Shown: positions 3,467 through 63,303, counted from the stretch's first letter. The stretch is DNA of 64,000 nucleotides from an uncultured Planctomycetia bacterium (GCA_964433975.1 CAYSSS010000001.1:7989-71988); one strand, 5' to 3'. Notes: generated by a model from the sequence alone, not told the origin. Numbers and translations are program-made.

Positions 3467-4432
3467 ATGCCGAATAAAAAAGTGTCTGTGATCATACCGA
3501 TGTATAACGCCTCCGGCTGTATCGAGAATTGCCTATCTGCTGTATCGAAACAAACGGCCGGGGATCTTGAAGTTCTCCTGATAGACGATTGCTCTACGGA
3601 TGATACTGTCCAAAAAGCGCAAAGTTATCCTTTTAGGATAATCAGGACCGAAAAGCGCATTTCTCCGGCCAAGGTAAGGAATTATGGGGTAAAATTTGCT
3701 TCCGGAGATATTCTTGTATTTGTTGACGCCGATGTTGTGCTTAAGCCTGATTCGGCGAAGGAAATCATTAATGCGATATCCGCGCCCGGCACAGACGCGG
3801 TCTTTGGAATGTATGAAGAGGCTACCCCTCAGGCCGGTTTCTTTAGCCAGTTCCAAAACCTGTTCATAGTATACAGGTACGAAAGATTGCCCAGGTCTAC
3901 AGATATCACCTGCTCTTTTTTCTTCGCCATAAAAAAGAGCGTCTTTGAGGCTGTCGGGGGATATAACGAAGAGATGTCTTATTATGAGGATATCGAAATC
4001 GGTAAAAGGCTTTCTAAGGAAGGCTATCATTGTAAATTTGATCCCGGTCTCAAGGTAACGCATCTGAAGCGCTATAGCAACCTGAGCCTGATCAAAGACT
4101 ATTTTAGGAAGAGCGCCGAAGCAGGGCTTTATATAAAACGCGAGGGTTTCTCAAGAAAAATAAAGGATAATGCCTGGCCTCTTTCGATCAAGATAGCGGC
4201 ACTGTCAGGCCTTTGCCTTTTATCTTCCATCAGCCTGATCAGGATTACATTCATTCCTCTTTTACTGCTTTTCGGCATATATAATGTTTCAATAGTTCCT
4301 TTCCTGTCATATCTGGTTAAAAACAGAAATCTGGTTTTCGGTATAAAATCCTACTTAGTGTTATTTGAGATCTATCCGGCTTTTTTCACCGGGTTATCTT
4401 ATGGCATCCTGAAAAGAGGCGCTCGTGGCTGA
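3467..4432 (+). CDS. GT2 glycosyltransferase with C-terminal membrane anchor
   Basis: VSVIIPMYNASGCIENCLSAV, LIDDCSTDDT and VFVDADV (DxD). The last ~90 aa are hydrophobic (about 3 TM). ATG 3467 follows the stop of the upstream gene. The longer ORF from 3371 overlaps that gene out of frame. Confidence 0.8.
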   Translation: MPNKKVSVIIPMYNASGCIENCLSAVSKQTAGDLEVLLIDDCSTDDTVQKAQSYPFRIIRTEKRISPAKVRNYGVKFASGDILVFVDADVVLKPDSAKEIINAISAPGTDAVFGMYEEATPQAGFFSQFQNLFIVYRYERLPRSTDITCSFFFAIKKSVFEAVGGYNEEMSYYEDIEIGKRLSKEGYHCKFDPGLKVTHLKRYSNLSLIKDYFRKSAEAGLYIKREGFSRKIKDNAWPLSIKIAALSGLCLLSSISLIRITFIPLLLLFGIYNVSIVPFLSYLVKNRNLVFGIKSYLVLFEIYPAFFTGLSYGILKRGARG

Positions 4433-5492
4433 TTTACTAAAAGTTTTGCCCAGGATATTTTTCCCTAAAGGGGATCCGCTTCAATTTATTTTTTTCATTA
4501 CCGCCAAATGCAATCTCAGGTGCAGGCATTGTTTTTATCTCGAGAATATAGATGAACCAAAGGACGAATTATCCTTAAATGAGATAGAGAAGATTTCTCA
4601 TGGGATGGGCGATCTACTCTGGCTCTCCCTGACCGGCGGCGAACCATTTTTAAGAAAGGACATCGCTCAGATCGCGAAGATCTTTTATGTTAATAATAAA
4701 TTCAATCTTTTGACCATATGTACCAACGGTATTCTGCAGGATCAGATTATCCGGTCGGTCTCTGATATCTGTAGAACATGCAAGAAAGGGCACATCATAA
4801 TATATGTTTCACTGGATGGCATGAAGGAAACGCATGATCATCTCAGGGGCCTTCAGGGCGGATTTGAAACGGCCCTGGGTACGGTCCGAGAGCTTAAAAA
4901 ACTCAAAAAAGATTTTAAGAATCTAAATGTGGGAACCATTACTACCTGCAGCGCGGAGAATCAAAAGGATATGGGGAGATTAGCGTCATTCCTGAAGAGC
5001 GAGATTAAGCCGGATAATATTTCGATTAACCTTATACGAGGTAAGCCGCGTTCTACCAACCTGGGAGCGGTGGACCTGAAACATTATTTTGAATTCGTGA
5101 AAGTTCAAAAAGAGGGATGGGCCACCGGGGATTTCGGGCATTTTAATTTGTTCGGTAAGACCTTTATCAGGCGAAGGGAGTTGCTGCAGAAACAAGTCAT
5201 ATCTACCGTATTTAAAGAGGATAGATATGTAATTCCCTGCCTGGCAGGGAATATCAGCTGCGTAATGACGGAAACAGGAGATCTATACCCCTGTGAGATT
5301 CTTGATAAGAAAATAGGCAATATAAAAGAGACGGATTACGACTTTAAGAGGCTATGGCATTCTACGGAGGCGGCAAAGCTCAGGAGCTTTATCAAGGATA
5401 CCAAGTGCTATTGCACATACGAATGCGCCATCACGACTAATATTCTCTTTAATATGTCGCAGTTAACGAAGATGTTCACAGGGAGAGCTTAA
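4425..5492 (+). CDS. Radical SAM enzyme with SPASM-type C-terminal Cys cluster
   Basis: CNLRCRHC (CxxxCxxC) and the SLTGGEPF SAM-binding GGE motif. The C-terminal Cys-rich region reads CLAGNISCV...GDLYPCE...CYCTYEC. The GTG start overlaps the upstream stop by 8 nt. Confidence 0.8.
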   Translation: MADLLKVLPRIFFPKGDPLQFIFFITAKCNLRCRHCFYLENIDEPKDELSLNEIEKISHGMGDLLWLSLTGGEPFLRKDIAQIAKIFYVNNKFNLLTICTNGILQDQIIRSVSDICRTCKKGHIIIYVSLDGMKETHDHLRGLQGGFETALGTVRELKKLKKDFKNLNVGTITTCSAENQKDMGRLASFLKSEIKPDNISINLIRGKPRSTNLGAVDLKHYFEFVKVQKEGWATGDFGHFNLFGKTFIRRRELLQKQVISTVFKEDRYVIPCLAGNISCVMTETGDLYPCEILDKKIGNIKETDYDFKRLWHSTEAAKLRSFIKDTKCYCTYECAITTNILFNMSQLTKMFTGRA

Positions 5493-5496
5493 GGAC

Positions 5497-6462
5497 ATGA
5501 AATATTTGGTAACAGGCGGAACGGGTTTTATAGGCAGTGCTCTTGTCAGACGTCTGGTGGAAGAAGGTAACAGCGTCAGAGTCCTTGATAATAATTCGAG
5601 AGGCAGGTTTTCCCGTTTGAAAGATATAGCATCCAGTATACAGATGGTCAATGGAGATATCCGCAAGCCGGAAGATGTTCAAAAGGCATGTAAGGGCATG
5701 GACGCCGTATGCCATCTGGCATATTTGAACGGTACGGAATTTTTCTATACAAGACCTGAGCTTGTGCTTGAGATCGGGGTCAAGGGCATGATTAACGTTA
5801 TAGACGCTTGTATCAAAGAAGGCGTGCGTGAGTTAATAGTCGCGTCCAGCTCGGAAGTTTATCAGACTCCGCCTAAAACCCCGACTGACGAACAAGTTCC
5901 GTTAAGTATCCCAGATCCGACTAACCCGAGATATTCTTACGCCGGAGGAAAGATCATAAGCGAGCTTATGGCGATAAATTACGGACGGAAGCACTTTGAT
6001 AGAGTGGTTATATTCAGGCCGCATAATGTTTACGGGCCGGATATGGGTCGAGAGCATGTAATACCGCAGTTCATCCTGAGGATGAAGAAGCTTTGTCAAA
6101 AATCCGGGTCAAAACAGGCGCGTTTCCCGATACAGGGATCCGGTAACGAAACAAGGGCTTTTGTGTTTATCGATGACTTTATTGACGGACTTATGCTTGT
6201 GCTGAAAAAAGGCTCTCATCTCAATATTTACAACATCGGGACGATGGAGGAGATTACCATTCAGAAAGTGGTCCGGGAGGTGGGAAGGTATTTCGGGAAG
6301 AAGGTTATTATTGAGACCGGCAAGCTTGCGAAAGGCGGGACATTGCATCGCTGCCCCGATATTTCCAAATTAAGAAAAATGGGTTATAGGCCGAAAATCT
6401 CTTTTGCGAAAGGCCTGGGGATTACGGCCGCCTGGTACGATAAAAATAGGGGGAAAAATTGA
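5497..6462 (+). CDS. NAD-dependent sugar-nucleotide epimerase/dehydratase (extended SDR)
   Basis: MKYLVTGGTGFIGSALV, the SSSEVYQ serine region, and YAGGK (YxxxK). Confidence 0.8.
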   Translation: MKYLVTGGTGFIGSALVRRLVEEGNSVRVLDNNSRGRFSRLKDIASSIQMVNGDIRKPEDVQKACKGMDAVCHLAYLNGTEFFYTRPELVLEIGVKGMINVIDACIKEGVRELIVASSSEVYQTPPKTPTDEQVPLSIPDPTNPRYSYAGGKIISELMAINYGRKHFDRVVIFRPHNVYGPDMGREHVIPQFILRMKKLCQKSGSKQARFPIQGSGNETRAFVFIDDFIDGLMLVLKKGSHLNIYNIGTMEEITIQKVVREVGRYFGKKVIIETGKLAKGGTLHRCPDISKLRKMGYRPKISFAKGLGITAAWYDKNRGKN

Positions 6463-7727
6463 ACAAGTCTACTAATCTTGCTTTCAGGTCTGGATCAAGT
6501 GTAGTTGTAGAACGCTGCCAGGTATGCGATAGTCCAAACTTGGAGCCGGTATTATTTTTGGGCTACCTTCCGCCTGTGAATAAAATGCATAAGATCGGGG
6601 AAAAGCCGATGGAAGAAAGTGGATATCCTGCGCAATTGCTTTATTGTCTCAAGTGCCACTTAGTCCAGCTTGGACTAATTGTAGATCCAGCCATATTATT
6701 TCCCCCGGAATATCCATATACCAGCAGCACTACTAAAATATTGAGAGAAAATTTTGCCGAACTATACAAAGAGTGCTCGGGCCTCATAGATTTGAAATCC
6801 AGCGACCTGGTTGTAGATATCGGCTCCAACGATGGAAATCTTTTAAGTAATTTTAAAGGGCATTGCAATGTTCTTGGCGTCACTCCGGAAGAGATCGGTA
6901 AGATCGCTATTGATCGCGGCATACCGACCATCATTGATTATTTCAATCATGATGTTGTAGAAAATATTTTGAAGAAAGACGGGCAGGCAAAGATCATCAC
7001 TGCAACCAATGTTTTTGCGCACATAGAGAATGTCAATGAAATAGTTAAATGTATTTTGCAATTATTATCAAAAGATGGCGTATTTATTTCAGAGTCCCAT
7101 TATCTGTTTTCCCTGATCGAAACCCTGCAATACGATACCATCTATCACGAGCATCTTCGTTATTATTCTTTGCATAGCCTGCAGTACCTTCTTAAGTCCC
7201 ATGGCCTGGAGATATTCCACGCCAAGCGCATTCCAACCCACGGAGGTTCAATAAGAGTATATGCGGCAAGGAAGGGGCAATACAAGGTGAAGGATACGGT
7301 CGATAGGCTCCTGAAGGAAGAAGGGCCGGTTGTTCTTAGCAAAGAAAGCCTGATGAAATTCAGGGACAAGGTCGTGTTATCAAAGCTGGAATTGAATGCT
7401 TTACTGGGGGATATTAAAATGAAGGGCGAAAGGATATGCGGTATAAGCGCGCCTTCCAGGGCAAGCACTCTCATCAATTACGCAGGTATTGACGATGGCA
7501 TCCTTGATTGTGTTCTGGAGATCAAGGGTTCGCATAAGATAGGCAAGTATGTGCCGGGGACTCTCATACCCATACTTGAAGAATCATCGCTTTTTTTTGA
7601 TCAGCCTGAATATGCACTTTTACTTTCGTGGCATATAGCTGATGAATTAATGCCAAAGCTAAGAGCAAAGGGGTTTAAGGGAAAGTATATTGTGCCGTTG
7701 CCATCACCTAGAATAGCAGGAGAATAG
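6459..7727 (+). CDS. NDP-hexose C-methyltransferase-architecture enzyme (TylCIII-like): Zn-ribbon, class I SAM MTase and C-terminal domain
   Basis: CQVCDS...CLKCHLVQL (CxxC...CxxC), EYPYTSS, VVDIGSNDGNLL (motif I) and DTIYHEHLRYYS. The C-terminal domain reads GISAPSRASTLINYAGI. TTG start in a TTGA overlap, preceded by a GGGGG RBS. Confidence 0.75.
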   Translation: MNKSTNLAFRSGSSVVVERCQVCDSPNLEPVLFLGYLPPVNKMHKIGEKPMEESGYPAQLLYCLKCHLVQLGLIVDPAILFPPEYPYTSSTTKILRENFAELYKECSGLIDLKSSDLVVDIGSNDGNLLSNFKGHCNVLGVTPEEIGKIAIDRGIPTIIDYFNHDVVENILKKDGQAKIITATNVFAHIENVNEIVKCILQLLSKDGVFISESHYLFSLIETLQYDTIYHEHLRYYSLHSLQYLLKSHGLEIFHAKRIPTHGGSIRVYAARKGQYKVKDTVDRLLKEEGPVVLSKESLMKFRDKVVLSKLELNALLGDIKMKGERICGISAPSRASTLINYAGIDDGILDCVLEIKGSHKIGKYVPGTLIPILEESSLFFDQPEYALLLSWHIADELMPKLRAKGFKGKYIVPLPSPRIAGE

Positions 7728-7730
7728 TTA

Positions 7731-9812
7731 ATGGGATTTAATTTTTATGAAATCTTAAAGAAGATCGCTTGTTTTGTCCTGATAGTGCTCTGTGTCGGAT
7801 TGCCCGCTATCAGCGTATTCAGCTTTGTCATCATTTTCATCTCAGGCCTAGCGATAGTTAACGGAGCGGCAAAGCATTCTTTAAAGCGGCTGATAGCGGT
7901 GGTTTTAATAACGGTCTCGATCGTTATCGTTAAAAGCGTTCTTCCGCACGCCGCGATACAGGAAGGGCATAATATCTTTTTTACTAAAAGCGACGGAGAA
8001 GCATTGGAAAAGGGGCTACCTCCGGAGGCTTTTAATTTTATGAAACAGCGGTTTTTAATGCAGTATCCTCTGGATAAAAGGAATATTACCGATACCGGAT
8101 GCTGGCAAAGTCAGGCGCCACGATCTCTATTTGTCTTTTCGTCCGATTCGGCATTCTCAAAACCTAAATATAGCCGCATAGTGGACAGCGTGAACTTTGA
8201 CAATCTTACAGAATTCAGGGGCGGCTTTGCGAATGATAGCGCTTATGGCTGGTTTGGAGCCTCTGATATCAAGCGGGAGAGCATGCCGTTTTTTGTAATG
8301 TATGAGTTGTCGCCATCTTCCGTTGATAGTTCACTATACTGGACCGGGTATGTCTTGTGGGAAGGCGCGGACGGGCATTATCAAACCATCTACAACGAGA
8401 CCAGGGGTTGCAGAAAGATAACGGATTCGGATATCGGTAAAAAAGTTTTTGGAGTAGCGATAAATAATGAAGAACAATTGGGTTTTTGGGGCAGGTTTAA
8501 AGATTTAAAATCGAGAATAAGGCTTTTCCTGTCCGGCAAAAAGCCTGTTCATGCGTCGGAAGAAAGCAAAGAGACGTCTCTTTCCATAAGCCTGGCGTTG
8601 TCTCCTGTGCTAAAATTTTCGTACATTTTAAAAAGGATCCTGGAGGTCTTAGGGGTATTTTTTATACTTAACCTGATGGTTAAGATAAACCGGAAACGCT
8701 TTCTTATCGCTTGTACAATAATCGCGTCCGCGGCAATCATAGTTTATTTATATTGTCCACACTTGTTCGGCCAGTATTATATTCATGAAGGGGGCGAAGA
8801 CGGCCCGACCCATGAAACGTTAGGGCGGGGAATATTGGTTAATGCCGTGTCCGGGGATTGGAAACAGGCTCTCCGCGGAGGAGAGGATGTTTTCTGGAAT
8901 ACACCCGGATTCCGGTATTTCCGCGCGCTGGAAAAATTATTCTTTGGCGATACCGATTTCGGATATCTGGCTGTTGTTTTAATATTGCCGTATGTCCTTT
9001 TTGGATTTCTCGCGAATTTTATTTCAGAAAAATGGTCTTTCTGGATAACCGTGTTTTTTATATTCAGTGTCTTTTTGCATTCTCATTCGCTGGATTCCCT
9101 CGGCTTTACATATCATATTTATGTAATGGTGGTCCGTGGCGGCTGGCCCGATTCTTTGGCCTATACGGCTTTTCTCGGCGCCCTTACCCTACCCTTAAGA
9201 TATATAAAAAGGCGCGATGGGGCGTATTTATGGTACGGGCTTCTGGCGCACTTTTTATTTTTTATTGCGGTCTTCATGCGCCCGCAATTCTGTCTTACAG
9301 CCCTGATAGCAGTATTGTACTTTGCCGTGAGATTGTTCAGGGAGGGTAGGGTTAGGGAGATATTTCTTACATGGATAGGTTTTGTGCCTATCCTGTTTCC
9401 TCTCGCGCACAATTATTTCTTTGGCGGTAAACTCCATCTCTTTACAGGTTTTACCAGCATGGCTTTAAGCACGCCGCCTTCTATGTACTTCAATGCCTTA
9501 AAAGAGTTGCTGGCGGCGGATTTTTCTGGGCAGAACTTAAACAAAGTTGTCTTGCATCTAAAGAGTATGGTAGGCCCATGGTATCGGATTATCTTCCTTG
9601 GGATAGTCTTTTATGCGGCTTTTCTTAAACGAAAGATACCGGCTGATATGAGGATGGTGGCGATCCTCTGTTTAAGCCTGCATTTTGTCAACTTGTTTAT
9701 CTTTGCGGTCTATTTTAGATATGTTTTTCTGGCGTGGGCGTTGACGGTGGTAGTAGCGATATTTTTACTCTGGTTGAGGCTGGCTGGCCGGAAAGAGAGG
9801 GTTGTGCTATGA
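7731..9812 (+). CDS. Large polytopic membrane protein of unknown function; possible GT-C-type glycosyltransferase or polymerase
   Basis: 693 aa. It has 2-3 N-terminal TM helices, a ~230-aa non-hydrophobic domain (about residues 75-300), then 10 or more TM helices. The first loop of the TM bundle is acidic (HEGGEDGPTHE...GDWKQALRGGEDVFWNTPGFRYF), loosely like ArnT/PMT-type GT-C loops. The function is inferred only. Confidence 0.35.
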   Translation: MGFNFYEILKKIACFVLIVLCVGLPAISVFSFVIIFISGLAIVNGAAKHSLKRLIAVVLITVSIVIVKSVLPHAAIQEGHNIFFTKSDGEALEKGLPPEAFNFMKQRFLMQYPLDKRNITDTGCWQSQAPRSLFVFSSDSAFSKPKYSRIVDSVNFDNLTEFRGGFANDSAYGWFGASDIKRESMPFFVMYELSPSSVDSSLYWTGYVLWEGADGHYQTIYNETRGCRKITDSDIGKKVFGVAINNEEQLGFWGRFKDLKSRIRLFLSGKKPVHASEESKETSLSISLALSPVLKFSYILKRILEVLGVFFILNLMVKINRKRFLIACTIIASAAIIVYLYCPHLFGQYYIHEGGEDGPTHETLGRGILVNAVSGDWKQALRGGEDVFWNTPGFRYFRALEKLFFGDTDFGYLAVVLILPYVLFGFLANFISEKWSFWITVFFIFSVFLHSHSLDSLGFTYHIYVMVVRGGWPDSLAYTAFLGALTLPLRYIKRRDGAYLWYGLLAHFLFFIAVFMRPQFCLTALIAVLYFAVRLFREGRVREIFLTWIGFVPILFPLAHNYFFGGKLHLFTGFTSMALSTPPSMYFNALKELLAADFSGQNLNKVVLHLKSMVGPWYRIIFLGIVFYAAFLKRKIPADMRMVAILCLSLHFVNLFIFAVYFRYVFLAWALTVVVAIFLLWLRLAGRKERVVL

Positions 9813-55850: not shown

Positions 55851-56693
55851 ATGAAGTTTCAAAAATATCCGAATCGAATTGTCATTGAATTGACGCCAGA
55901 ATGCAATCTGAGTTGCCAGGTTTGCCCGCGTAAATATATGGCGCAAAAGAAAGGGCATATTTTAAAGGATCTATGGGTCAAACTTATTAATGAAGTGGCC
56001 GAGTGTTCGCCGGGAGCGGTAATAATTCCTTTCTGGAGAGGGGAATCCCTTACTCACCCCGGCTTTTGCGATTTAATGGAACTTGCGCTTAAGAATTCAC
56101 TGCGCATTCATATTTCCACGAACGGGATATTGGCAGATGGCAAATATTTTCGGTTGTTGGCTAGGTGCGAATTTGTTACTTTCAGCATTCATACGATCGC
56201 GGGTTATCATAATGCGAGGAGTTTCCTGAAATTTAGAAACGCGAAACAGCCGGTCACCCAAATTTCGTTTGTAGAGGGCGAGGAGTCCGTGGGGGATATC
56301 TGTTCATCTGTGGTTAACTCGCCTGACCTAGAAGGATTTGATAACGTAAGGATATATGCGCAGCATAGTAAGGATGGTGTTTTCGGAAGTTCAGGTAAGA
56401 ATGCAGGCGCAAAGAGAGTTTTTTGCCCAAAGTTGCAGGGTACCCTGGTGATCGCTTATGATGGGACGGTTTCCAGATGTAATCATATGTGGGAAACAGA
56501 GAAAGAAGTAAATGTTAAGGATATGAGCATACGCAACGCCTGGGATTCGGATTGCCTTAAGCGGATACGACAAGATTATCCCGACTCCAAATGCGGGCCT
56601 TGTGGACAATGGGCCGGGCATACGTGCGGCGACTCATGGAAAAACGAAAACGGGAAGATAGTGCATAACCATTTCCGCGCGGGAAATCAATAA
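55851..56693 (+). CDS. Radical SAM enzyme with SPASM-like C-terminal Cys cluster
   Basis: PECNLSCQVC (CxxxCxxC). C-terminal Cys cluster: CPKL...GTVSRCNH...CLKRI...SKCGPCGQWAGHTC. 280 aa. Confidence 0.75.
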   Translation: MKFQKYPNRIVIELTPECNLSCQVCPRKYMAQKKGHILKDLWVKLINEVAECSPGAVIIPFWRGESLTHPGFCDLMELALKNSLRIHISTNGILADGKYFRLLARCEFVTFSIHTIAGYHNARSFLKFRNAKQPVTQISFVEGEESVGDICSSVVNSPDLEGFDNVRIYAQHSKDGVFGSSGKNAGAKRVFCPKLQGTLVIAYDGTVSRCNHMWETEKEVNVKDMSIRNAWDSDCLKRIRQDYPDSKCGPCGQWAGHTCGDSWKNENGKIVHNHFRAGNQ

Positions 56694-56694: not shown

Positions 56695-57843
56695 ATGAAT
56701 AAAAAACGGAATATTTCAATTGCTGTGCCATACATAGGCGAGAGGGAAATAGAGGCGATAAAAAAGCCTTTATTAAGCGGTTGGTTAACGCAGGGCCCTT
56801 ACGTTTCGGATTTTGAAAAAAAATTCGCAAAAATGCATGGTGTCCGGCACGCGGTTGCCGCCAGCAGCTGTACCACCGCGCTCCATTTAGCGCTTGTCGC
56901 TTTAGGAATTGGGCCGGGGGACGAAGTCATCGTACCGTCCTTTACCTGGGTTGCCACTGCAAACGCCGTAGAATACATAGGCGCTCATCCCATTTTTTGC
57001 GATGTAGACCGGGATACTTATAATATCTCCGCTAAAGGTATAGAGGCGGTTGTAAATAAGCGCACCAGGGCTATCATACCGGTGCATCTGTTCGGGCTTT
57101 GTGCAGATATGAACAGGATAATGGCTATATGCAAACGGTATGGGTTGAGTATCATTGAGGATGCGGCATGCGCTGTCGGCGCATCCATTAATGGAAAAAA
57201 AGCGGGTTCTTTCGGTGACATCGGATGTTTTTCTTTCCATCCCCGTAAAATTATAACTACGGGGGAAGGCGGCATGTGCACGACAAATAATAAAAAACTC
57301 GCGCAGACCCTGATCTCGTTACGTAATCACGGAGCCTCTGTCCCGGAGGGAGTACGTCATTCGGGGTATAAGCCGTATATGATGCCCGATTTTAAAATAT
57401 TGGGATACAACTACAGGATGACAGATCTGCAAGGAGCCATAGGGCTGGCCCAGCTGTCGCGGCTTGCTTCTCTTATACTGGAGCGGCAAAAATGGGCCGA
57501 GTGGTATAGAAAAGAATTAAAGGATTTGGAATGGCTTATAACGCCTCGTGCGCCTAAGGGATTCCAGCACAGCTATCAGTCGTTTGTCTGCTATGTTGAT
57601 GAGGATAAAGCGCCTATGCCGCGCAACGAGATCATGAAAAGATTGTATTTGGAAGGCGTAGACACCCGTGTTGGGACCATAGCGGTCCATATGCAGGATT
57701 ACTATACCCGTAAATATGGTATTGATCCGGATTCGTTTCCGGTTTCGAAGGATTGCGATTTTAAATCACTGGCGATCCCTCTTCATAACAGGATGTCACC
57801 GGATGACTATGAATATGTTGTTAACATCTTGAAAGGTATTTAA
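56695..57843 (+). CDS. DegT-family PLP aminotransferase (WbpE/WlbC-like)
   Basis: ISIAVPYIGEREIEAI, SSCTTALHLAL, EDAACAVGA, and FSFHPRKIITTGEGGM (catalytic Lys). Confidence 0.85.
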   Translation: MNKKRNISIAVPYIGEREIEAIKKPLLSGWLTQGPYVSDFEKKFAKMHGVRHAVAASSCTTALHLALVALGIGPGDEVIVPSFTWVATANAVEYIGAHPIFCDVDRDTYNISAKGIEAVVNKRTRAIIPVHLFGLCADMNRIMAICKRYGLSIIEDAACAVGASINGKKAGSFGDIGCFSFHPRKIITTGEGGMCTTNNKKLAQTLISLRNHGASVPEGVRHSGYKPYMMPDFKILGYNYRMTDLQGAIGLAQLSRLASLILERQKWAEWYRKELKDLEWLITPRAPKGFQHSYQSFVCYVDEDKAPMPRNEIMKRLYLEGVDTRVGTIAVHMQDYYTRKYGIDPDSFPVSKDCDFKSLAIPLHNRMSPDDYEYVVNILKGI

Positions 57844-57846: not shown

Positions 57847-59724
57847 ATGTGCGGAATAGCGGGAATATTTAACCTTAACGGCAGCCCCGTCTCCCCGGTT
57901 TTATTAAGGAAGATGACAGACGCGATAGCCCATCGCGGCCCCGATGGAGAAGGATTTTATGTCGATAGTTTTATCGGATTGGGGCACCGCCGTTTAGCCA
58001 TAATAGATCTTTCTCCCGCAGGGCACCAGCCTATGATCACCGAAGATAAACAATACGCGCTTACGTATAACGGCGAGATATATAATTTTCAGGAATTGAA
58101 GGCGGAATTAGAGAGGTTGGGCTATAGATTCAGGTCAAAAACAGATTCGGAGGTAGTTCTCTATTCCTATGTTCAATGGGGAGAGAAATGTCTGGATCGT
58201 TTTAACGGCATGTTCGCTTTTGCTGTTTGGGACAAATCAAAACAGCAGCTTTTTATCGCCCGGGATCGTTATGGGATAAAACCTTTATACTATTGCGTTC
58301 AGGATAAAAAGTTGATGTTCGCCTCCGAATCCAAGGCGTTTTTGACACAGCCTGACTTTAAACGTGAACTGGATTTTGAGGCATTGTACGAATATTTTAC
58401 GTTTCAGAATATATTTACCGATAAAACTTTTTTTAAGGACGTTCGGCTGCTTCCCGCCGGCTCTTATCTAAAAGTACGTTTAAACGGCCTTAGCGCTCTC
58501 CCAAAGTCGATTCAGTACTGGGATTTTAATTTTTCTGATCCGGCGAAACCTCTTAGTGAAAAGGAATATCTCTCTGAAATCGACCGTCTTTTCCGCCAGG
58601 CGGTAAATCGCCAATTAATAAGCGATGTGGAAATAGGCGCATATTTAAGCGGCGGCATGGATTCGGGCTCTATTACCGCTATAGCCGCAAAACAGCTGCC
58701 GTATATAAAAACATTTACCTGCGGGTTTGATTTGAGTTCGGCCTCAGGATTGGAGATGGGGTTTGATGAAAGAGAAAAGGCCGAATACATGTCCAACCTT
58801 TTTAAAACAGAGCATTACGAGATGGTATTGAAGGCAGGGGACATGGAAAGGGCGCAGCCGGGACTTGCCTGGCACCTGGAAGAACCGCGGGTTGGCCAAA
58901 GCTACCCCAACTATTATATCGCGCGCCTTGCTTCAAAATTCGTAAAAGTAGTTCTATCGGGGGCCGGTGGAGATGAGTTATTTGGTGGTTATCCATGGAG
59001 ATATTACCGGGCAACGATCAATAATGATTTTGAAGATTATATAGATAAGTACTATCTATTCTGGCAAAGACTTATACCGAATAGCTCATTAAAAGAAATA
59101 TTCAGTCCTGTTGCAGATAAAGTAAACGGTGTCTGGACCAGGGATATTTTTAAGGATGTTTTTAAGAAAAAAAACATATCGTTAACGCGCCCCGAGGATT
59201 ACATAAATTATTCATTGTATTTTGAAGCAAAGACATTTCTTCACGGTTTATTGGTAGTCGAAGATAAGCTAAGCATGGCGAATGGCCTTGAGGTAAGGAT
59301 GCCGTTTCTGGACAACGACCTTGTGGATTTTGCAATGAAAATACCGGTTCATATGAAATTAGATAATCTCGGAGAAATTATAAAATTAAATGAAAACGAC
59401 ATCGGCCCTAAGAAAGAAAAATATTTCCAAAAAACAAAAGACGGAAAGACGATCTTGCGTAAAGCGATGAAAAAATATATACCGTCGCAAATAACAGGGG
59501 CCATTAAACAGGGTTTCTCTGCGCCAGATGCGTCATGGTTTAGGGGGGAGAGCATGGAGTATGTTAAGAAGGTGATATTTAATGATCGCGCCAGGATTTA
59601 TGATTTTTTTGATCATAAAGTTGTTCAACGGCTGGTCGAAGAGCACTTAACCGGCAGGCAGAATAGAAGATTATTTATCTGGTCCCTGTTAAGTTTTGAA
59701 CACATGTGCGAAAAGTATATGTAG
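57847..59724 (+). CDS. Asparagine synthase (glutamine-hydrolysing) family amidotransferase, paralogue 3
   Basis: MCGIAG (Cys2), GHRRLAIID, GHQPM, YNGEIYNF, and the PP-loop YLSGGMDSG. 625 aa. Confidence 0.85.
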   Translation: MCGIAGIFNLNGSPVSPVLLRKMTDAIAHRGPDGEGFYVDSFIGLGHRRLAIIDLSPAGHQPMITEDKQYALTYNGEIYNFQELKAELERLGYRFRSKTDSEVVLYSYVQWGEKCLDRFNGMFAFAVWDKSKQQLFIARDRYGIKPLYYCVQDKKLMFASESKAFLTQPDFKRELDFEALYEYFTFQNIFTDKTFFKDVRLLPAGSYLKVRLNGLSALPKSIQYWDFNFSDPAKPLSEKEYLSEIDRLFRQAVNRQLISDVEIGAYLSGGMDSGSITAIAAKQLPYIKTFTCGFDLSSASGLEMGFDEREKAEYMSNLFKTEHYEMVLKAGDMERAQPGLAWHLEEPRVGQSYPNYYIARLASKFVKVVLSGAGGDELFGGYPWRYYRATINNDFEDYIDKYYLFWQRLIPNSSLKEIFSPVADKVNGVWTRDIFKDVFKKKNISLTRPEDYINYSLYFEAKTFLHGLLVVEDKLSMANGLEVRMPFLDNDLVDFAMKIPVHMKLDNLGEIIKLNENDIGPKKEKYFQKTKDGKTILRKAMKKYIPSQITGAIKQGFSAPDASWFRGESMEYVKKVIFNDRARIYDFFDHKVVQRLVEEHLTGRQNRRLFIWSLLSFEHMCEKYM

Positions 59725-59761
59725 AAAAAATATTTTTAATCGAAAATTAAGAAGGCGAAAA

Positions 59762-60547
59762 ATGGATCTTAAAGAAGTAAGGAAGCATTGGGAAAGGGCA
59801 AGCAAAAGATTTTCTCTTAAAGAGGACACGACCCCAACATCACGGGACCCTTATTTGGGGCAACTCGAGGAAGAAGGCATACTAAGATACCTTGATAAAA
59901 ATAAAACTGTTCTGGAGATAGGCTGCGGAGACGCCTCCCATACGGTCAGGTACGCCAAAAAAGTAAAACGGCTTTCAGCCATTGATATTACAAAAAGTTT
60001 GATCGATATTGCGGAGAAAAAAGCGACCGCCGGCGAAATTAAGAACGCAGATTTTATCATCGGTTCCGCTTTAAGTATAAAAGAAATATATAAAGGCACG
60101 CGGTTTAACTGCGTTGTGTCGCAGAGATGCTTGATAAATCTTTCCAGTTGGAAGCATCAAAAAGATTGCATTTTACAGATTCATGGTCTTTTGCATAGAA
60201 GGGGGTTATGCTTACTTACAGAGGGTTTTCAGGACGAGCTAAACAACCTCAATGTATTTAGAAGAAGGATGGGGTTGTCTAAAATAAGGGTTGTCCCCTA
60301 TAACAAAAACTTACGGCACAAAAATTTTGATAAATTCATAAAAACGTATTTCGACATTGTCGATATCCATCACTACGGCCTATACTTATTTCTATCTCGT
60401 GTTTTATATCCTTTCGCGATTATGCCTCTTGAGCCGAAGCATACTTCGCGGTTTAATGAAGCGGCATTGAAGGCCTCGCAAGTTATGGATGCGTCGGATT
60501 TCAAAAAATATAGCTACAATTTATTATATGTGTTGCGAAAAAAATGA
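59762..60547 (+). CDS. Class I SAM-dependent methyltransferase
   Basis: Motif I VLEIGCGDASHT, post-I AIDIT, and SQRCLINL. ATG 59762 has an AAGAAGG RBS upstream. The ORF is open from 59696, but that stretch overlaps the asnB tail. Confidence 0.7.
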   Translation: MDLKEVRKHWERASKRFSLKEDTTPTSRDPYLGQLEEEGILRYLDKNKTVLEIGCGDASHTVRYAKKVKRLSAIDITKSLIDIAEKKATAGEIKNADFIIGSALSIKEIYKGTRFNCVVSQRCLINLSSWKHQKDCILQIHGLLHRRGLCLLTEGFQDELNNLNVFRRRMGLSKIRVVPYNKNLRHKNFDKFIKTYFDIVDIHHYGLYLFLSRVLYPFAIMPLEPKHTSRFNEAALKASQVMDASDFKKYSYNLLYVLRKK

Positions 60548-60571
60548 TCTTAAAATAGAAAGAAACGTAGA

Positions 60572-61321
60572 ATGATTAAAAAAAGCAAAGTTGCCATAAC
60601 AATAGACACGGATTGGGTGTCGGATGAGGTCATTGAGTATACTCTTGCCCTGTTGCTTAAATATAACGCTAAGGCCACATGGTTTATTACTCACGATTCT
60701 AATGCTATCAAGCGGCTTTTTGATTGCAATGACATGTTTGAGATAGGAATACATCCTAATTTTCTATCTAACTCTACACAGGGGTCTACAGTGTCAGAGG
60801 TGATGTCGAATCTTTTAAGTATTCATCCGGAAGCTAAAATTATGAGGACGCACTCTTTATATCAGTCCTCTCTGATGTTCGAAACGATATTAAAAAAATA
60901 CCCCGGGATAAAGGCCGATGTTTCGTTATTCCTGCCGTACGAAGAACATGTAAGGCCGCACAGGTACTATGCCATGTCCGCGAACAAGATGAATTATATT
61001 ACGAGAATACCCTATGTTTGGGAAGATGATTATGAGATGTACTTACCAAAACCAAACTTCAAATTCGACATAGGAAGATTTAGTGGGACGGGCATAAAAA
61101 TATTTGATTTTCATCCTATCCATATTGCGCTTAATAGCGTTACGATTGATTCCTATGCCAGATTAAAAAGTAGTAGTGCATCCGGAATACCAAAATTAAA
61201 GCTGAAAGATGTTTTTAGGTTCAGGCAGACCAAGTGCGCAGGGGTTGAAGATTTTTTAAAAGGTCTATTATGCGATAAAAAGGCGCAATTTGTGAACATA
61301 AAGGAAAAGACAAGAATATGA
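60572..61321 (+). CDS. Polysaccharide deacetylase-fold protein (WbmS-like)
   Basis: VAITIDTDWVSDEVIEYTLALLLKYNAKATWFITHDS and EIGIHPNF. 249 aa. The layout resembles the small deacetylase family found in Bordetella-type O-antigen loci (from memory). Confidence 0.55.
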   Translation: MIKKSKVAITIDTDWVSDEVIEYTLALLLKYNAKATWFITHDSNAIKRLFDCNDMFEIGIHPNFLSNSTQGSTVSEVMSNLLSIHPEAKIMRTHSLYQSSLMFETILKKYPGIKADVSLFLPYEEHVRPHRYYAMSANKMNYITRIPYVWEDDYEMYLPKPNFKFDIGRFSGTGIKIFDFHPIHIALNSVTIDSYARLKSSSASGIPKLKLKDVFRFRQTKCAGVEDFLKGLLCDKKAQFVNIKEKTRI

Positions 61322-62217
61322 AAGTCGTTGCCATAGGAAGAACTTCGATGCTCTATAATTCCGTATTAAAATTATCAGAAGACGCTCACGAGGTAAAAAC
61401 GATAATTACAGCGAAGTCAGCGCATGAATATACAAGGAACGAAGAAGAATTCAAGGCGTTGGCGAAGGAAACGCACGCGTCGTTTTTTTTAACAAACCGG
61501 TTAGATAAGCCAGAGATCATGCGGGCAATAAAAGGTTCCGATATAGCGATCAGTGTTAATTGGGTGTCACTCTTTATCAAAAAGCAGATCGATTGTTTTA
61601 AGATAGGGATCCTAAATGCGCACATGGGTGATTTGCCAAAATACAGGGGTAACGCATGCCCGAATTGGGCTATCCTGAACAGCGAGAAAGAGATTGTTAT
61701 TTCAATCCATTTGGTGGAAGCCGGCAAATTAGATTGCGGCAGGGTAATCGTTCAGGATAGGTTAGCGATTTCGCAAACTACCTATATAGGGGATGTTTAC
61801 GCCTGGGCGGAAACCACTATTCCGGATTTATTTGTAAAAGCATTGGCTATACTACGTAAGGATCCGGACTATGAATTAAAATACGCTGATGCGGACGCCG
61901 CGGAATCTTTCAGATGTTATCCTAGAAGACCGGAAGACAGTAAGATTGAATGGACGTCTTCCACCGAAAAGATACATAGGCTCATACGGGCTTCCGGTAA
62001 GCCTTTTAGCGGGGCCTATGGTTTTTTGGACGGAAAAAAGCTCATTGTTTGGAAAGCGGAGCCATGCAGCGGTAATGAACGCTATACCGCGGTCCCCGGT
62101 CAGATCTGTGAGATCGGACAACAATATTTTGTTGTTGCTACCGGAGAAGGCAAGCTCAAGATAACAGAGTGGGAGTGCGGTGCCAGAATAAAAACGATTC
62201 GGCAAAGATTGCAATAA
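61318..62217 (+). CDS. Formyltransferase (Fmt-like), second copy
   Basis: ILNAHMGDLPKYRGNACPNWAILN (N/H motif), KLDCGRVI (Asp), and a C-terminal Fmt-type domain. ATGA overlap with the deacetylase. Confidence 0.75.
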   Translation: MKVVAIGRTSMLYNSVLKLSEDAHEVKTIITAKSAHEYTRNEEEFKALAKETHASFFLTNRLDKPEIMRAIKGSDIAISVNWVSLFIKKQIDCFKIGILNAHMGDLPKYRGNACPNWAILNSEKEIVISIHLVEAGKLDCGRVIVQDRLAISQTTYIGDVYAWAETTIPDLFVKALAILRKDPDYELKYADADAAESFRCYPRRPEDSKIEWTSSTEKIHRLIRASGKPFSGAYGFLDGKKLIVWKAEPCSGNERYTAVPGQICEIGQQYFVVATGEGKLKITEWECGARIKTIRQRLQ

Positions 62218-62250
62218 CCACCGACGAAAATAATATCTTTCTTAAAAAAT

Positions 62251-63303
62251 ATGAGAATTCGTATAAAACAAAGTTTAAAATGGCTATTAGGTATAACAAA
62301 AGCTCTCATCGCTATTGTCAAGGGGCAAAGAGGGGCAAGTGAGCACCTTCTTGCTACATGGTCTTTTTTTATCAAGTCAGACTATGCTTTTGGCAAACCG
62401 GTTAATGTTACTATTGAACCGACCAATGCTTGCAATCTCTTCTGTCCTGTTTGCGAGACAGGCGCTGGTGTGCTGAGCAGGGAAAAAAAGACGATGACAT
62501 TAGACGAATTTAAGATTATCGCGGATAAGATAGCGCTTTTTACAAATACGCTAATGTTGTATTTTATGGGTGAGCCGTTTTTGAATAATGATTTATACGA
62601 GATGGTAAAGTATGCAAAGGGAAAAGGGATATCCTTCATAACGGCCTGCACCAACGGTACTTTTATAGACCCTGAGAAGATTGTCGGGTCAGGCATAGAT
62701 GAGATAAATTTTCAATTATCCGGATTAACCAAAGATACACATGAAATATACCGGATCGGCAGCGACCTCAACTCGATCATGGACAACCTGAAAAATACCA
62801 TCAAGGTGCGCAATGAACGCATGTCTAAGATGCGCATCGTCTGTGGTTTCATTTTGATGAAACAGAATGAGCATCAGGCAGGAGATGTTAAGAGATACAT
62901 GAAGCAGATAGGGGTAGATAAGACAGTAATGATCGATCTCTGCGTCAGGACCTTAGAACAAGGTAGAAGGTTTTTGCCTTCAAATAGAAATCACTGGATA
63001 TATGACCCGGTATCTTTTGAAAAAGGCAAGCTCAAGCCCAGGATAAGCTCGAAGAATGGATGTTCGTGGATGTATTATTCTGTCGTGATACAGGTTAACG
63101 GGGATGTAGTACCATGCTGCAGAGACGTGAATGGCGATTTTATAATGGGGAATATTTTGAAACAGGGATTTAATGATATTTGGAATGGGGCTAATTTTAG
63201 GAATTTCAGAAAAAAAATACACTGTAAAAAGAATGAAGTAAATATTTGCAGCTTATGTTCCGGATATGGGTTAGCACAGTTAAAAAATAATATCAATGGG
63301 TAA
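62251..63303 (+). CDS. Radical SAM enzyme with SPASM-type C-terminal Cys cluster
   Basis: TNACNLFCPVC (CxxxCxxC) and YFMGEPF. C-terminal Cys cluster: CSWMY...GDVVPCCRD...CSLCSGYG. 350 aa. Confidence 0.8.
   Translation: MRIRIKQSLKWLLGITKALIAIVKGQRGASEHLLATWSFFIKSDYAFGKPVNVTIEPTNACNLFCPVCETGAGVLSREKKTMTLDEFKIIADKIALFTNTLMLYFMGEPFLNNDLYEMVKYAKGKGISFITACTNGTFIDPEKIVGSGIDEINFQLSGLTKDTHEIYRIGSDLNSIMDNLKNTIKVRNERMSKMRIVCGFILMKQNEHQAGDVKRYMKQIGVDKTVMIDLCVRTLEQGRRFLPSNRNHWIYDPVSFEKGKLKPRISSKNGCSWMYYSVVIQVNGDVVPCCRDVNGDFIMGNILKQGFNDIWNGANFRNFRKKIHCKKNEVNICSLCSGYGLAQLKNNING

Follow-up and report, generated by a model that had tools for sequence, protein, structure and literature searches.

Three twitch-like radical SAM enzymes with a probable role in sugar tailoring in a putative surface-polysaccharide gene cluster

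Organization of the Gene Cluster

The window (the whole 64-kb stretch of DNA analyzed) comprised 58 genes on the same strand, with only two intergenic gaps longer than 40 nt (42 and 51 nt). The three ORFs with CxxxCxxC motifs reported in the initial annotation were recovered at 4425-5492 (R1, 355 aa, CNLRCRHC), 55851-56693 (R2, 280 aa, CNLSCQVC), and 62251-63303 (R3, 350 aa, CNLFCPVC). The gaps to the adjoining genes measured -8 and 4 nt for R1, 20 and 1 nt for R2, and 33 and 7 nt for R3, within the limit of 33 nt given there. Four further radical SAM genes of the window, all B12-binding, had been overlooked (13324-14844, 21518-23029, 28173-29816, and 47703-49244). The relevant features are listed below.

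2727..3461, +, GT2 glycosyltransferase, polyprenyl-phosphate sugar synthase-like (PF00535, 1.1e-16)
3371..4432, +, membrane-anchored GT2, conserved partner of R1 (PF00535, 5e-32; PF13641; PF13506)
4425..5492, +, R1, radical SAM with twitch-like auxiliary domain (invariant Cys 29/33/36 and 272/290/328/330/334)
5497..6462, +, extended SDR (NAD-dependent epimerase/dehydratase) directly 3' of R1 (PF01370, 1.2e-49)
6459..7727, +, NDP-hexose C-methyltransferase-like, TylCIII type (PF08484, PF08421, PF13489)
7731..9812, +, 693-aa polytopic membrane protein (about 10 hydrophobic segments)
47703..49244, +, B12-binding radical SAM directly 5' of GT4 (PF02310, PF04055)
54247..55830, +, fusion of GFO/IDH/MocA sugar 3-dehydrogenase (WbpB-like) and hexapeptide N-acetyltransferase (WbpD-like) (PF01408, PF22725, PF00132)
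55851..56693, +, R2, 280-aa twitch radical SAM, candidate BtrN-like sugar dehydrogenase (invariant Cys 18/22/25 and 192/210/248/251)
56695..57843, +, DegT/DnrJ/EryC1 sugar aminotransferase (DegT#2), proposed user of the R2 product (PF01041, 4e-122)
57847..59724, +, AsnB-like glutamine amidotransferase, proposed uronamide or amidine former (PF00733, PF13537)
59696..60547, +, SAM-dependent methyltransferase (PF13847, PF13649)
60572..61321, +, WbmS-like protein, polysaccharide deacetylase fold (PF22537, 3.9e-57)
61318..62217, +, sugar N-formyltransferase (PF00551, PF02911)
62251..63303, +, R3, twitch radical SAM with basic hydrophobic N-terminal helix (invariant Cys 61/65/68 and 271/289/333/336, extra 133/231/290)
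63311..64000, +, start of a Wzx-like flippase continuing beyond the window (459 aa in full on this contig, L001)

The sugar-enzyme flanks proposed earlier held for R1 (GT2 and SDR) and R3 (formyltransferase and Wzx-like flippase), but the acetyltransferase placed upstream of R2 proved to be the dehydrogenase-acetyltransferase fusion, with DegT downstream. The best NCBIfam models, all below cut-off, were PpgS, PgfS, AglJ, and dolichyl-phosphate hexose transferase for the GT2 at 2727..3461, LegB, RmlB, and GalE for the SDR, UDP-GlcNAc 3-dehydrogenase (160 bits) for the fusion, and TIGR03108 (480 bits) for the AsnB-like protein. AsnB orthologues adjoining DegT#2 in related loci scored 700-1170 bits. 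The 459-aa Wzx-like product showed 27% identity (BLASTP, E=4e-52) to a PF01943 protein. The B12-binding radical SAM gene at 47703..49244, in module A, occupies the position that R3 has in module B. Genes of related loci were labeled by phmmer with the window proteins as queries, unlabeled genes being simply unclassified.

Domain Composition and Conserved Cysteines of R1, R2, and R3

The HMM assignment proposed in the initial annotation placed all three proteins above the Pfam gathering cut-offs for PF04055 Radical_SAM (50, 36.6, and 50.7 bits for R1, R2, and R3, respectively; cut-off 29.5) and PF13186 SPASM (25.9, 30.5, and 59.8 bits; cut-off 21.5). These assignments are not due to chance. No NCBIfam equivalog cut-off was reached by any of the three, and the families are mutually distant (approximately 18-19% identity).

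The C-terminal region, previously described as SPASM or twitch, belongs to the SPASM domain family but departs from the canonical 7-Cys SPASM motif. The family alignments, with only four conserved C-terminal Cys residues in R2, four plus two to three extra ones in R3, and five in R1, indicate a twitch-like domain with a single auxiliary cluster. Each enzyme is predicted to combine a radical SAM core with such a domain carrying one auxiliary [4Fe-4S] cluster. Absence of auxiliary ligands had been named as evidence against the original proposal; Cys residues at the ligand positions were conserved, and those aligned in R2 and R3 with the four auxiliary-cluster Cys of BtrN were invariant. Besides its four cluster ligands, R3 has three invariant Cys (C133, C231, and C290). 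No invariant non-ligand Cys was found in R2, C106 being absent in 2 of 22 sequences.

In profile searches, the best solved relative was BtrN for R2 (1.3e-8) and R3 (4.4e-18), and SkfB for R1 (6e-18). Foldseek searches with AF2 models ranked BtrN first among PDB entries for R2; for R3 the first was the uronate decarboxylase BlsE (E=3e-13, TM 0.60/0.63). TM-scores overall were only 0.5-0.65, and the peptide-modifying SuiB, SkfB, and EpeE scored nearly as high.

Sugar or Peptide Substrates

The majority of characterized SPASM-domain enzymes modify peptides or proteins, and the nearest structures include SkfB, SuiB, CteB, and anSME. At least one of R1, R2, and R3 might be a protein or peptide maturase, for instance of the anSME type or acting on a glycosylated surface protein, with its substrate encoded elsewhere and a glycan location reflecting co-regulation only; the R2 orthologue of Helicobacter rodentium, adjoining flagellin and Maf genes, would fit. 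We consider this highly improbable. No RRE/PqqD domain was found in R1, R2, or R3, and the first Cys of CxxxCxxC is residue 18 of R2 and residue 29 of R1. The initial annotation had pointed to a co-varying small ORF or sulfatase as the observation that would speak for such a substrate: the surroundings of R2 in 23 loci and of R3 in 32 contained no conserved small ORF, neither such an ORF nor a sulfatase gene accompanied R1, R2, or R3, and the anSME model gave 58 bits against a cut-off of 349 bits. SkfB, anSME, SuiB, PqqE, and MftC share with R1-R3 the superfamily and the PF13186 domain family, but the loci studied here have no precursor peptide gene, RRE, sulfatase, or full 7-Cys SPASM. Their neighborhoods consist entirely of sugar enzymes, among which the operon place is constant, and fusions with DegT and GT2 are known.

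The glycan-gene neighborhoods of R1, R2, and R3 were kept across phyla. This conservation, the lack of a small ORF, the relationship to BtrN, the fusion of an R2-like domain with DegT, and the alternation of R2 with C4-acting SDRs in one operon slot make the carbohydrate-directed role originally suggested well supported as far as the substrate class is concerned. The fuller reading, in which R1, R2, and R3 are sugar-tailoring enzymes with the roles proposed below in a giant surface-polysaccharide cluster with Wzx/Wzy export, seems to us fairly probable. All substrates and reactions are those that we infer from the observed domain content, conserved Cys, gene order, slot alternation, and fusions.

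R2 as a Candidate Sugar Dehydrogenase

Orthologues of R2 were found in 23 loci. DegT lay immediately downstream in 16 of the 21 with a visible downstream gene, DegT or GFO/hexapeptide genes lay upstream in 11 loci, and AsnB was at most five genes away in 14. The usual order was GFO-Hexapep-DegT#1-R2-DegT#2-AsnB (L105, L111, and L115). A natural 675-aa protein, P0510, present on two separately assembled contigs, joins an R2-like domain to a complete DegT. In L018, L025, L045, L046, and L052 the slot of R2, 5' of orthologous DegT#2-AsnB, was taken by an SDR of about 330 aa, for which GalE was the best model, followed by LegB, RmlB, and TviC. C4-acting NAD-dependent extended SDRs (GalE, TviC, the ArnA C-terminal domain, 4,6-dehydratases) and R2 hence alternate in otherwise syntenic loci, with the same predicted regiochemistry and the same place before a 4-aminotransferase-like DegT. 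The SDRs have a Rossmann fold and use NAD+ whereas R2 has a radical SAM core and two [4Fe-4S] clusters, a case of functional analogy rather than homology. The best NCBIfam models of DegT#2, the 4-aminotransferases PseC (335 bits) and ArnB (306 bits), and of the formyltransferase, the ArnA formyltransferase domain, were below cut-off and point to C4-amino chemistry.

The best reading of these data is that R2 acts as a BtrN-like dehydrogenase supplying a keto (probably 4-keto) UDP-diacetamido-uronate for transamination. The 5'-deoxyadenosyl radical would take a carbinol hydrogen from UDP-2,3-diacetamido-2,3-dideoxy-hexuronate or its amide, supplied by the neighboring WbpB/WbpD-like fusion and an aminotransferase, and the auxiliary cluster would accept an electron. 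The keto sugar, most likely 4-keto, would be transaminated by the downstream DegT, and the AsnB-like amidotransferase, methyltransferase, and formyltransferase would amidate, methylate, and N-formylate the sugar, giving a 2,3,4-triamino-type uronamide. In the related loci the NAD-dependent GalE-like SDR would perform the step of R2.

BtrN is the 2-deoxy-scyllo-inosamine dehydrogenase of butirosin biosynthesis, whose ketone is taken by the DegT-family aminotransferase BtrS. Like R2 (280 aa), BtrN is a short protein (250 aa) that combines radical SAM and twitch domains, and its substrate is carbohydrate-like. Among solved structures it matches R2 and R3 best by sequence and ranks first by fold for R2, and the hand-over of its ketone to a DegT-family enzyme mirrors the R2-DegT adjacency and fusion. 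Identity is only about 15%, however, with no NCBIfam or orthology relationship, and BtrN acts on a free aminocyclitol of an antibiotic pathway whereas the predicted substrate of R2 is a UDP-amino-uronate in a surface-glycan or flagellin-glycan pathway. R3 differs from BtrN further in an extra N-terminal helical segment and its three extra invariant Cys.

The DesII-like deaminase role suggested initially gained no specific support. DesII (with DesI) is a radical SAM TDP-4-amino-4,6-dideoxyglucose deaminase/dehydrogenase of about 480 aa without a twitch/SPASM auxiliary cluster. It acts on a nucleotide sugar, is encoded beside a DegT-family aminotransferase, and was among the fold matches, but it works after the aminotransferase and removes the amine, whereas the conserved aminotransferase of the R2 loci is downstream and their products appear to keep amino groups, given the formyl- and acetyltransferases. 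The argument from an oxygen-independent route does not discriminate, as the NAD+ SDR and GFO enzymes for the same job are oxygen-independent too.

Several observations weigh against a dehydrogenase. The SDRs in the slot are at least as epimerase-like (GalE, TviC) as keto-sugar-releasing, so the displacement argument fixes C4 chemistry better than net oxidation. The module in the window has one DegT beside two candidate oxidases, and a 4-keto-hexuronate decarboxylates readily. In Sedimenticola (L007), R2 follows WbpA-B-D-E, where a WbpI-type epimerase is expected, and the second aminotransferase is absent.

The slot SDRs and the Sedimenticola locus, where R2 holds the usual place of the 2-epimerase, favor radical SAM epimerases similar to the aminoglycoside enzymes NeoN and HygY, an unlikely though still serious alternative for R2, R3, or both. 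Here the 5'-deoxyadenosyl radical would strip the UDP-diacetamido-uronate of a ring hydrogen (at C4, C5, or C2), which a protein donor would replace from the other side of the ring; another enzyme would make the keto sugar used by the second aminotransferase. The extra Cys of R3 might donate the hydrogen, the fold matches include the epimerase EpeE, and a uronamide C5-H would yield a stabilized radical. R2, however, has no comparable Cys; its adjacency to DegT and the fusion are predicted by an oxidation-transamination pair and not by an epimerase, and in loci with two DegT genes the GFO enzyme is the sole other dedicated oxidase.

Decarboxylation by R2 or R3, either BlsE-like or oxidative in place of the ArnA C-terminal domain, appears quite improbable. 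It would turn UDP-diacetamido-hexuronate into a pentose with a 4-keto or 4-hydroxy group, with amination and N-formylation as in the Ara4N pathway, the expected product being a 2,3,4-triamino-pentose as in the Psychrobacter cryohalolentis O-antigen. BlsE (cytosylglucuronate decarboxylase, PDB 7VOB), a member of the SPASM/twitch clade with a uronic acid glycoside as the substrate, ranked sixth for R2 in addition to being first for R3 and was also detected by sequence; the likeness of DegT#2 and the formyltransferase to ArnB and ArnA-N and the natural occurrence of triacetamido-arabinose (PMC8040287) point the same way. On the other hand, TM-scores do not separate the candidates, identity to BlsE is about 16%, and BlsE belongs to a nucleoside-antibiotic pathway. 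Moreover, no partner of DegT#2 is conserved more strongly than the AsnB-type amidotransferase. Its conservation argues against loss of the carboxyl carbon and fits retention of the carboxyl group in amide form, as found in the Bordetella GalN3N4NAN cap (PMC2615507).

R3 in a Possible Late, Membrane-Proximal Step

Among 31 loci with R3 orthologues, GT4 was the next gene in 15 and followed an intervening B12-binding radical SAM gene in four more (L029, L031, L034, and L044). AsnB was at most five genes away in 19 loci and a methyltransferase in 18, and Wzx-like and Wzy-like membrane families recurred. R3 may act late, at or near the membrane, with the GT4 glycosyltransferase, and might epimerize the amino-uronate at C5 or C4, dehydrogenate it, or decarboxylate it. 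A few R3 loci lack amino-sugar genes, which counts against the main reading: in L015/L024 R3 occurs with an unknown protein of 925 aa, and in L041 it lies among heptose genes.

R1 and Its Membrane GT2 Partner

The start of R1 overlaps the stop of the GT2 at 3371..4432 by 8 nt. This GT2 has a single predicted TM helix (residues 283-301), and its real start probably lies some 100 nt 3' of position 3371. In six of seven contexts, from Omnitrophota-like bacteria, Patescibacteria, Nitrospinota, and DPANN archaea, the gene immediately 5' of the R1 relative encoded an orthologous GT2, and its stop frequently overlapped the start of the R1 relative; in a nanoarchaeon the pair formed an isolated two-gene unit. 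GT-C type proteins (PMT_2, GT87, DUF2079) and flippase-like membrane proteins were encoded nearby, and one relative was fused to PF03706. The 693-aa membrane protein at 7731..9812, without a match in Pfam or NCBIfam, may serve the R1 module as its transferase or polymerase.

For R1 the initial proposal is weaker: since the constant partner of R1 is a membrane GT2 and not an NDP-sugar enzyme, the substrate is more likely the product of the coupled GT2, possibly lipid-linked. R1 and the GT2 would jointly act on this product, which is probably a sugar bound to a lipid. In hopanoid cyclitol ether synthesis, HpnI/HpnJ form a GT2 and radical SAM pair acting on membrane glycoconjugates, and DprE1/DprE2 epimerize decaprenyl-phospho-ribose. 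R1 resembles these systems in the coupling of a GT21-like membrane GT2 to a radical SAM enzyme with an SDR next to it and GT-C transferases and flippase-like proteins nearby. The likeness is an analogy: HpnJ is a B12-domain radical SAM enzyme whereas R1 is a twitch enzyme, no match of R1 to HpnJ was obtained in the NCBIfam search, and the HpnH model gave only 54 bits. One option for R1 would be to oxidize the sugar, which the adjacent SDR would then reduce to an epimer. An SDR was also 3' of R1 in the Patescibacteria locus L009.

Gene Content and Packing of the Island

The three ORFs singled out in the initial annotation as SPASM-type radical SAM enzymes were found at the positions claimed, each with its cluster motif (CNLRCRHC in R1, CNLSCQVC in R2 and CNLFCPVC in R3). 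A six-frame scan of the window for CxxxCxxC revealed four more radical SAM genes, each with an N-terminal B12-binding domain (class B type), so the window encodes seven radical SAM enzymes. The best NCBIfam models for the B12-binding proteins were of the HpnJ, BchE, PhpK and AprD4 types, all scoring far under cut-off.

Radical SAM genes of the window
4425–5492, +, R1
13324–14844, +, B12-binding radical SAM
21518–23029, +, B12-binding radical SAM
28173–29816, +, B12-binding radical SAM
47703–49244, +, B12-binding radical SAM, directly before a GT4 gene, mirroring the position of R3
55851–56693, +, R2
62251–63303, +, R3

The window (43.5% G+C) carries about 58 genes, every one of them on the + strand. 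Essentially all ORFs were scanned against Pfam and NCBIfam, and the picture is that of a single giant sugar/polysaccharide island.

Contents of the window
Sugar-nucleotide conversion: nucleotide-sugar dehydrogenase, many extended SDRs, RmlC-like epimerase
Carbon skeleton: two TylCIII-like C-methyltransferases, heptose genes, split transketolase
Nitrogen functions: three DegT aminotransferases, three AsnB-like amidotransferases, two formyltransferases
Other: numerous methyltransferases, GT2 and GT4 transferases, a Wzy-like protein, Wzx-like membrane proteins

The sugar-gene neighbors proposed for R1, R2 and R3 were confirmed, with two labels refined. The gene before R2 (54247–55830) encodes a WbpB-like GFO/IDH/MocA sugar dehydrogenase fused to a WbpD-like hexapeptide acetyltransferase, and the gene that follows R3 codes for a Wzx-like protein, the complete sequence of which, taken from the same contig, matches a PF01943 protein (E = 4e-52).

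The whole stretch (1–64000) forms an unusually long, densely packed operon-like array on a single strand, in which two parallel modules can be recognized. Module A (38570–51478) runs SDR, DegT, GT2, two methyltransferases, formyltransferase, methyltransferase, deacetylase, AsnB, B12-binding radical SAM and GT4; module B (54247–63303) runs GFO/Hexapep, R2, DegT, AsnB, methyltransferase, WbmS, formyltransferase, R3 and Wzx. Module A thus has an SDR in the place of R2 and a B12-binding radical SAM gene in the place of R3. A further group at 23553–28191, adjoining a B12-binding radical SAM gene and a DegT gene, comprises an APH-like kinase, a transketolase split into separate genes for its N and C halves, a methyltransferase and a Zn-dependent alcohol dehydrogenase; it may serve to make a sugar with a two-carbon branch or side chain. 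The ORFs at 23048–23656, 33770–34675 and 53383–54222 had no Pfam match, the last being called on the source contig as a shorter, 236-aa gene.

Family Assignment and Auxiliary Cysteines

All three proteins scored above the PF04055 gathering cut-off of 29.5 bits (50, 36.6 and 50.7 bits for R1, R2 and R3, respectively), and the radical SAM CxxxCxxC motif was invariant in each family alignment, as was the glycine-rich, SAM-binding GGE-type motif that comes after strand 2 (TGGEP in R1, WRGES in R2 and MGEP in R3). The SPASM label held in part. PF13186 was matched with 25.9, 30.5 and 59.8 bits (cut-off 21.5), but the full seven-cysteine motif (PF13186/TIGR04085: CX9-15GX4C...CX2CX5CX3C...C, ligating two auxiliary clusters) was absent, the CX2CX5CX3C block being missing from the family alignments of R1, R2 and R3.

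Beyond the triad of the SAM cluster, the R2 family has exactly four invariant cysteines (C192, C210, C248 and C251), whereas the R3 family has C271, C289, C333 and C336 plus three extra ones (C133, C231 and C290). In both cases, the domain aligns with the twitch domain of BtrN and the four cysteine positions coincide; a twitch domain, as in BtrN, MoaA and SkfB, is a shortened version with the form CX~17C...CX2C that binds a single auxiliary [4Fe-4S] cluster. The invariant cysteines of the R1 family besides the triad (C272, C290, C328, C330 and C334) give CX17C...CXCX3C, a twitch-like pattern that departs from this form. Judged from the alignments, the C-terminal domains of all three are twitch-like, with one auxiliary cluster predicted for R2 and R3 and, less surely, for R1.

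None of the three reached an NCBIfam equivalog cut-off (best scores 60–89 bits against 380–500), and the names AhbD, NirJ and tungsten-enzyme maturase do not apply because the scores lie far under these thresholds. Recent paralogy was also rejected, as profile–profile alignments gave pairwise identities of 18–19%. The three families are each well populated (719, 178 and 769 matches) and well preserved, with orthologues 45–57% identical across phyla. By sequence, R2 and R3 are radical SAM proteins of the twitch type and R1 is a radical SAM protein with a twitch-like pattern; none is a member of a named family.

Among solved structures, BtrN was the best profile match for both R2 (1.3e-8) and R3 (4.4e-18), with the four twitch ligand positions aligned; the best matches for R1 were SkfB, anSME and MoaA. 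The AlphaFold models (pLDDT 82 for R2 and 89 for R3) retrieved BtrN and BlsE, respectively, as the top Foldseek PDB match, at TM-scores of just 0.5–0.65 and with peptide maturases close behind. BlsE is a cytosylglucuronate decarboxylase, i.e., a radical uronate decarboxylase, and R3 matched it at a TM-score of only 0.60, 16% identity and a sequence E-value of 1.4e-7 over the core alone. In its presumed mode of action, R3 is likened to the carbohydrate-directed twitch enzymes in general, BtrN and BlsE as well as SpeY, HygY and NeoN.

Search for Peptide or Protein Substrates

The initial annotation had argued that no adjacent precursor gene could exist. The gaps flanking R1 (−8 and 4 nt), R2 (20 and 1 nt) and R3 (33 and 7 nt) indeed leave no space for one, and since only two intergenic gaps in the window exceed 40 nt (42 and 51 nt), there is no room anywhere in it for a free-standing precursor gene. 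A scan for small ORFs (at least 20 aa) around R2 yielded only ones that overlap longer genes. Across 23 loci with R2 and 32 with R3, independent loci had no small intergenic ORF in common near these genes, and the intergenic small ORFs near orthologues clustered only between duplicate copies of the same genome. Two small genes (46 and 34 aa) lying 2.4 kb upstream of an R1 relative (L180) were considered as peptides and dismissed, being lysine-rich, cysteine-poor and not conserved elsewhere.

No PqqD/RRE domain was detected by Pfam in R1, R2 or R3. With the cluster motif beginning at residue 18 (R2) or 29 (R1), the N-termini of these two proteins are too short for an RRE, which counts against a peptide substrate; the R3 core is preceded by only about 45 helical residues. 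As for a protein substrate of the sulfatase kind, no sulfatase domain was present in the window or the annotated loci, and an anSME identity (TIGR03942) was rejected for R1, which scored 58.5 bits against a cut-off of 349 and had no sulfatase. A distant, unlinked peptide or protein substrate is unlikely because the genes keep fixed operon positions and occur in fusions. Taking sequence, predicted structure and gene context together, R1, R2 and R3 very probably act on carbohydrates. The oxygen-independent chemistry put forward as the selective rationale does not discriminate, since the alternative SDR and GFO enzymes are equally oxygen-independent.

R2 as a Proposed Partner of DegT Aminotransferases

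Related loci were annotated by phmmer with the Pfam-labeled window proteins as queries, so that labels depend on likeness to these proteins, and the locus counts include some near-duplicates (L013/L033 and L114/L115). Among 23 loci with an R2 orthologue, DegT came immediately after R2 in 16 of the 21 in which a downstream gene was visible. Directly before R2 stood another DegT gene in seven loci and a GFO or hexapeptide gene in four, and an AsnB-like amidotransferase lay within five genes in 14. The fullest order, GFO-Hexapep-DegT#1-R2-DegT#2-AsnB followed by methyl- and formyltransferases, was seen in three loci (L105, L111 and L115); in the window, DegT#2 is the aminotransferase directly after R2 (56695–57843). 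In Sedimenticola, R2 comes after a canonical WbpA-WbpB-WbpD-WbpE set.

The strongest clue came from a displacement. In five loci found via R3 (L018, L025, L045, L046 and L052), the slot of R2, with GFO/Hexapep/DegT#1 on one side and the orthologous pair DegT#2-AsnB on the other, was filled by an extended SDR of about 330 aa. These SDRs scored best against GalE, then LegB, RmlB and TviC, enzymes that all oxidize a nucleotide sugar at C4, either transiently or permanently. When 1.84 billion representative proteins were searched, they also yielded a natural fusion of an R2-like twitch domain with a complete DegT (P0510, 675 aa), a partial copy of which occurs on a second, separately assembled contig (P0375). 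DegT#2 resembles the C4-amino enzymes PseC and ArnB, and the formyltransferase resembles ArnA-N.

The DegT adjacency, the slot exchange, the fusion and the resemblance to C4-amino enzymes together indicate that R2 supplies the next aminotransferase with its substrate or prepares that substrate, in the role that a C4-acting SDR would otherwise have. The displacement by SDRs taken alone does not separate net oxidation from C4 epimerization. Enzymes of the BtrN type turn a secondary alcohol on a sugar or cyclitol into a ketone and form 5'-dA in the process. The coupling to DegT expected of a BtrN-type dehydrogenase was, among the three enzymes, found for R2 only, in the 16 of 21 adjacencies and the P0510 fusion. 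The simplest chemistry would be a BtrN-like dehydrogenation to a 4-keto sugar: R2 would oxidize C4 of a UDP-2,3-diacetamido-uronate in a radical, NAD-independent reaction, and DegT#2 would then carry out a second transamination of the ketone, toward 2,3,4-triamino uronamide-type sugars. BtrN and BtrS work on the principle of oxidizing, then transaminating, and R2 would be alike in this respect. On sequence, structure prediction and gene context, we consider the chances evenly balanced that R2 is a dehydrogenase, specifically, whose product goes to DegT.

The pathway is predicted to end in a hexuronamide of the 2,3-diacetamido-4-formamido type. Sugars of this class are known: the Bordetella O-antigen is capped by a 2,3,4-triamino-2,3,4-trideoxy-galacturonamide, and its locus also contains several AsnB-type amidotransferases (PMC2615507). 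Psychrobacter carries 2,3,4-triacetamido-arabinose, a decarboxylated relative of the predicted sugar (PMC8040287).

In Helicobacter rodentium (L003–L006), a set of R2, DegT, AsnB, methyltransferase, acetyltransferase, formyltransferase, sulfotransferase and WbmS genes adjoins flagellin and a Maf gene, and is therefore a flagellin-glycosylation island; this suggests an unusual non-nonulosonate flagellin glycan in this species. In two proteins outside the window (P0508 and P0414), an R2/R3-like radical SAM domain is joined to a cytidylyltransferase-like domain at the N terminus, an architecture of the spiro-SPASM type.

In anaerobes and uncultured phyla, the loci for surface polysaccharides and flagellin glycosylation commonly include genes whose only label is "radical SAM/SPASM protein". 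A full-text literature search, covering few subscription journals, found no prior characterization of the R1, R2 or R3 families and no paper connecting a radical SAM enzyme with sugar pathways of the Wbp type or with those for O-antigens or flagellin glycans. Twitch radical SAM enzymes directed at carbohydrates are known as a kind; what is new is one concrete hypothesis, a precise and testable proposal for the R2 family. If true, it would carry BtrN-type chemistry over from antibiotic pathways to the nucleotide sugars of cell-envelope glycans, provide a clean case in which a radical SAM enzyme takes the place of an SDR and improve the annotation of hundreds of homologues, including some from Helicobacter and Campylobacter relatives.

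R1 and Its GT2 Partner

Six of the seven distinct R1 contexts had a GT2 gene directly upstream, coding for about 317–334 aa with GT21-like features and usually with overlapping stop and start codons.

Contexts of R1 with an upstream GT2
the window (GT2 at 3371–4432, +)
a Patescibacteria MAG
a Diapherotrites archaeon
two bacterial contigs, one of them Nitrospinota
a Nanoarchaeota contig (L185:5000–7083)

In the nanoarchaeal contig, the GT2-R1 pair, again with overlapping stop and start codons, stands alone among a seryl-tRNA synthetase gene, an IF-2B-like gene and other housekeeping genes, and is therefore a functional unit. It would be a self-contained two-gene module ranging from DPANN archaea and Patescibacteria to Omnitrophota-like bacteria.

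The GT2 partner in the window has a C-terminal hydrophobic helix, and a 693-aa protein downstream of R1 has about ten hydrophobic segments. Membrane proteins of the PMT_2, GT87 or DUF2079 type and a flippase-like protein (PF03706) are encoded near R1 relatives, and one R1 relative is itself fused to PF03706; distant GT2::rSAM::rSAM fusions of about 1150 aa (P0486 and P0498) also exist. The GT2 pairing, hydrophobic segments, GT-C/flippase-type neighbors and fusions point to a membrane-bound glycoconjugate, probably lipid-linked, rather than a free NDP-sugar as the likely substrate of R1. GT2-R1 might then be a radical SAM counterpart of DprE1/DprE2-type or HpnJ-type remodeling. To our knowledge, such remodeling of lipid-linked sugars has not yet been described for twitch enzymes.

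The seventh context (L183:386–3772), the sole one without an upstream GT2, has three radical SAM genes in tandem, one of which encodes a distant relative of R1 (38% identity); they are followed by genes for two proteins of about 600 aa of no known family, a polysaccharide deacetylase and a GT2.

R3 and Its Proposed Late Role in Glycan Assembly

A scan of species-representative genomes gave 239 R3 relatives. In 15 of 31 orthologous loci, a GT4 gene came directly after R3, and in four more a B12-binding radical SAM gene lay between them. Within five genes, AsnB was present in 19 of the 31 loci and a methyltransferase in 18, while the gene just upstream typically encoded a methyltransferase, formyltransferase or acetyltransferase. 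Recurrent unlabeled neighbors turned out to be membrane proteins resembling Wzx and Wzy, together with additional GT4s and methyltransferases. A soluble family of about 540 aa without a Pfam match recurred in 11 R3 glycan loci (e.g., L013:3967–5587, L018, L020, L027, L028, L039 and L050).

R2 and R3 share one operon in the window and in one related locus (L021), and R3 would therefore work at a late step of a pathway of this kind, beside the transferase. Its N-terminal segment of about 25 residues is hydrophobic, basic (median net charge +3) and moderately amphipathic, which weakly suggests that R3 is membrane-associated through it. The alignment-mapped extra cysteines (C133, C231 and C290) would suit an epimerase, which needs a hydrogen donor. 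With its methyltransferase-like and GT4 neighbors, R3 might instead contribute to a higher-carbon or branched amino sugar, a TunB-like option. That GT2-R1 performs radical remodeling of a membrane-anchored lipid-linked sugar and, at the same time, R3 does something besides redox chemistry or epimerization, such as TunB-like C–C coupling, is a combination we find rather improbable.

Several large proteins are encoded near R3, of 925 aa in a Lindowbacteria genome (L015/L024) and of 767–877 aa in L026, L030 and L037, none of them with a Pfam match. In this Lindowbacteria genome (L015/L024:8001–12037), the R3 orthologue (52% identity) is not part of a glycan cluster and is paired only with the 925-aa protein. 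In another locus (L041), R3 was found among heptose genes.
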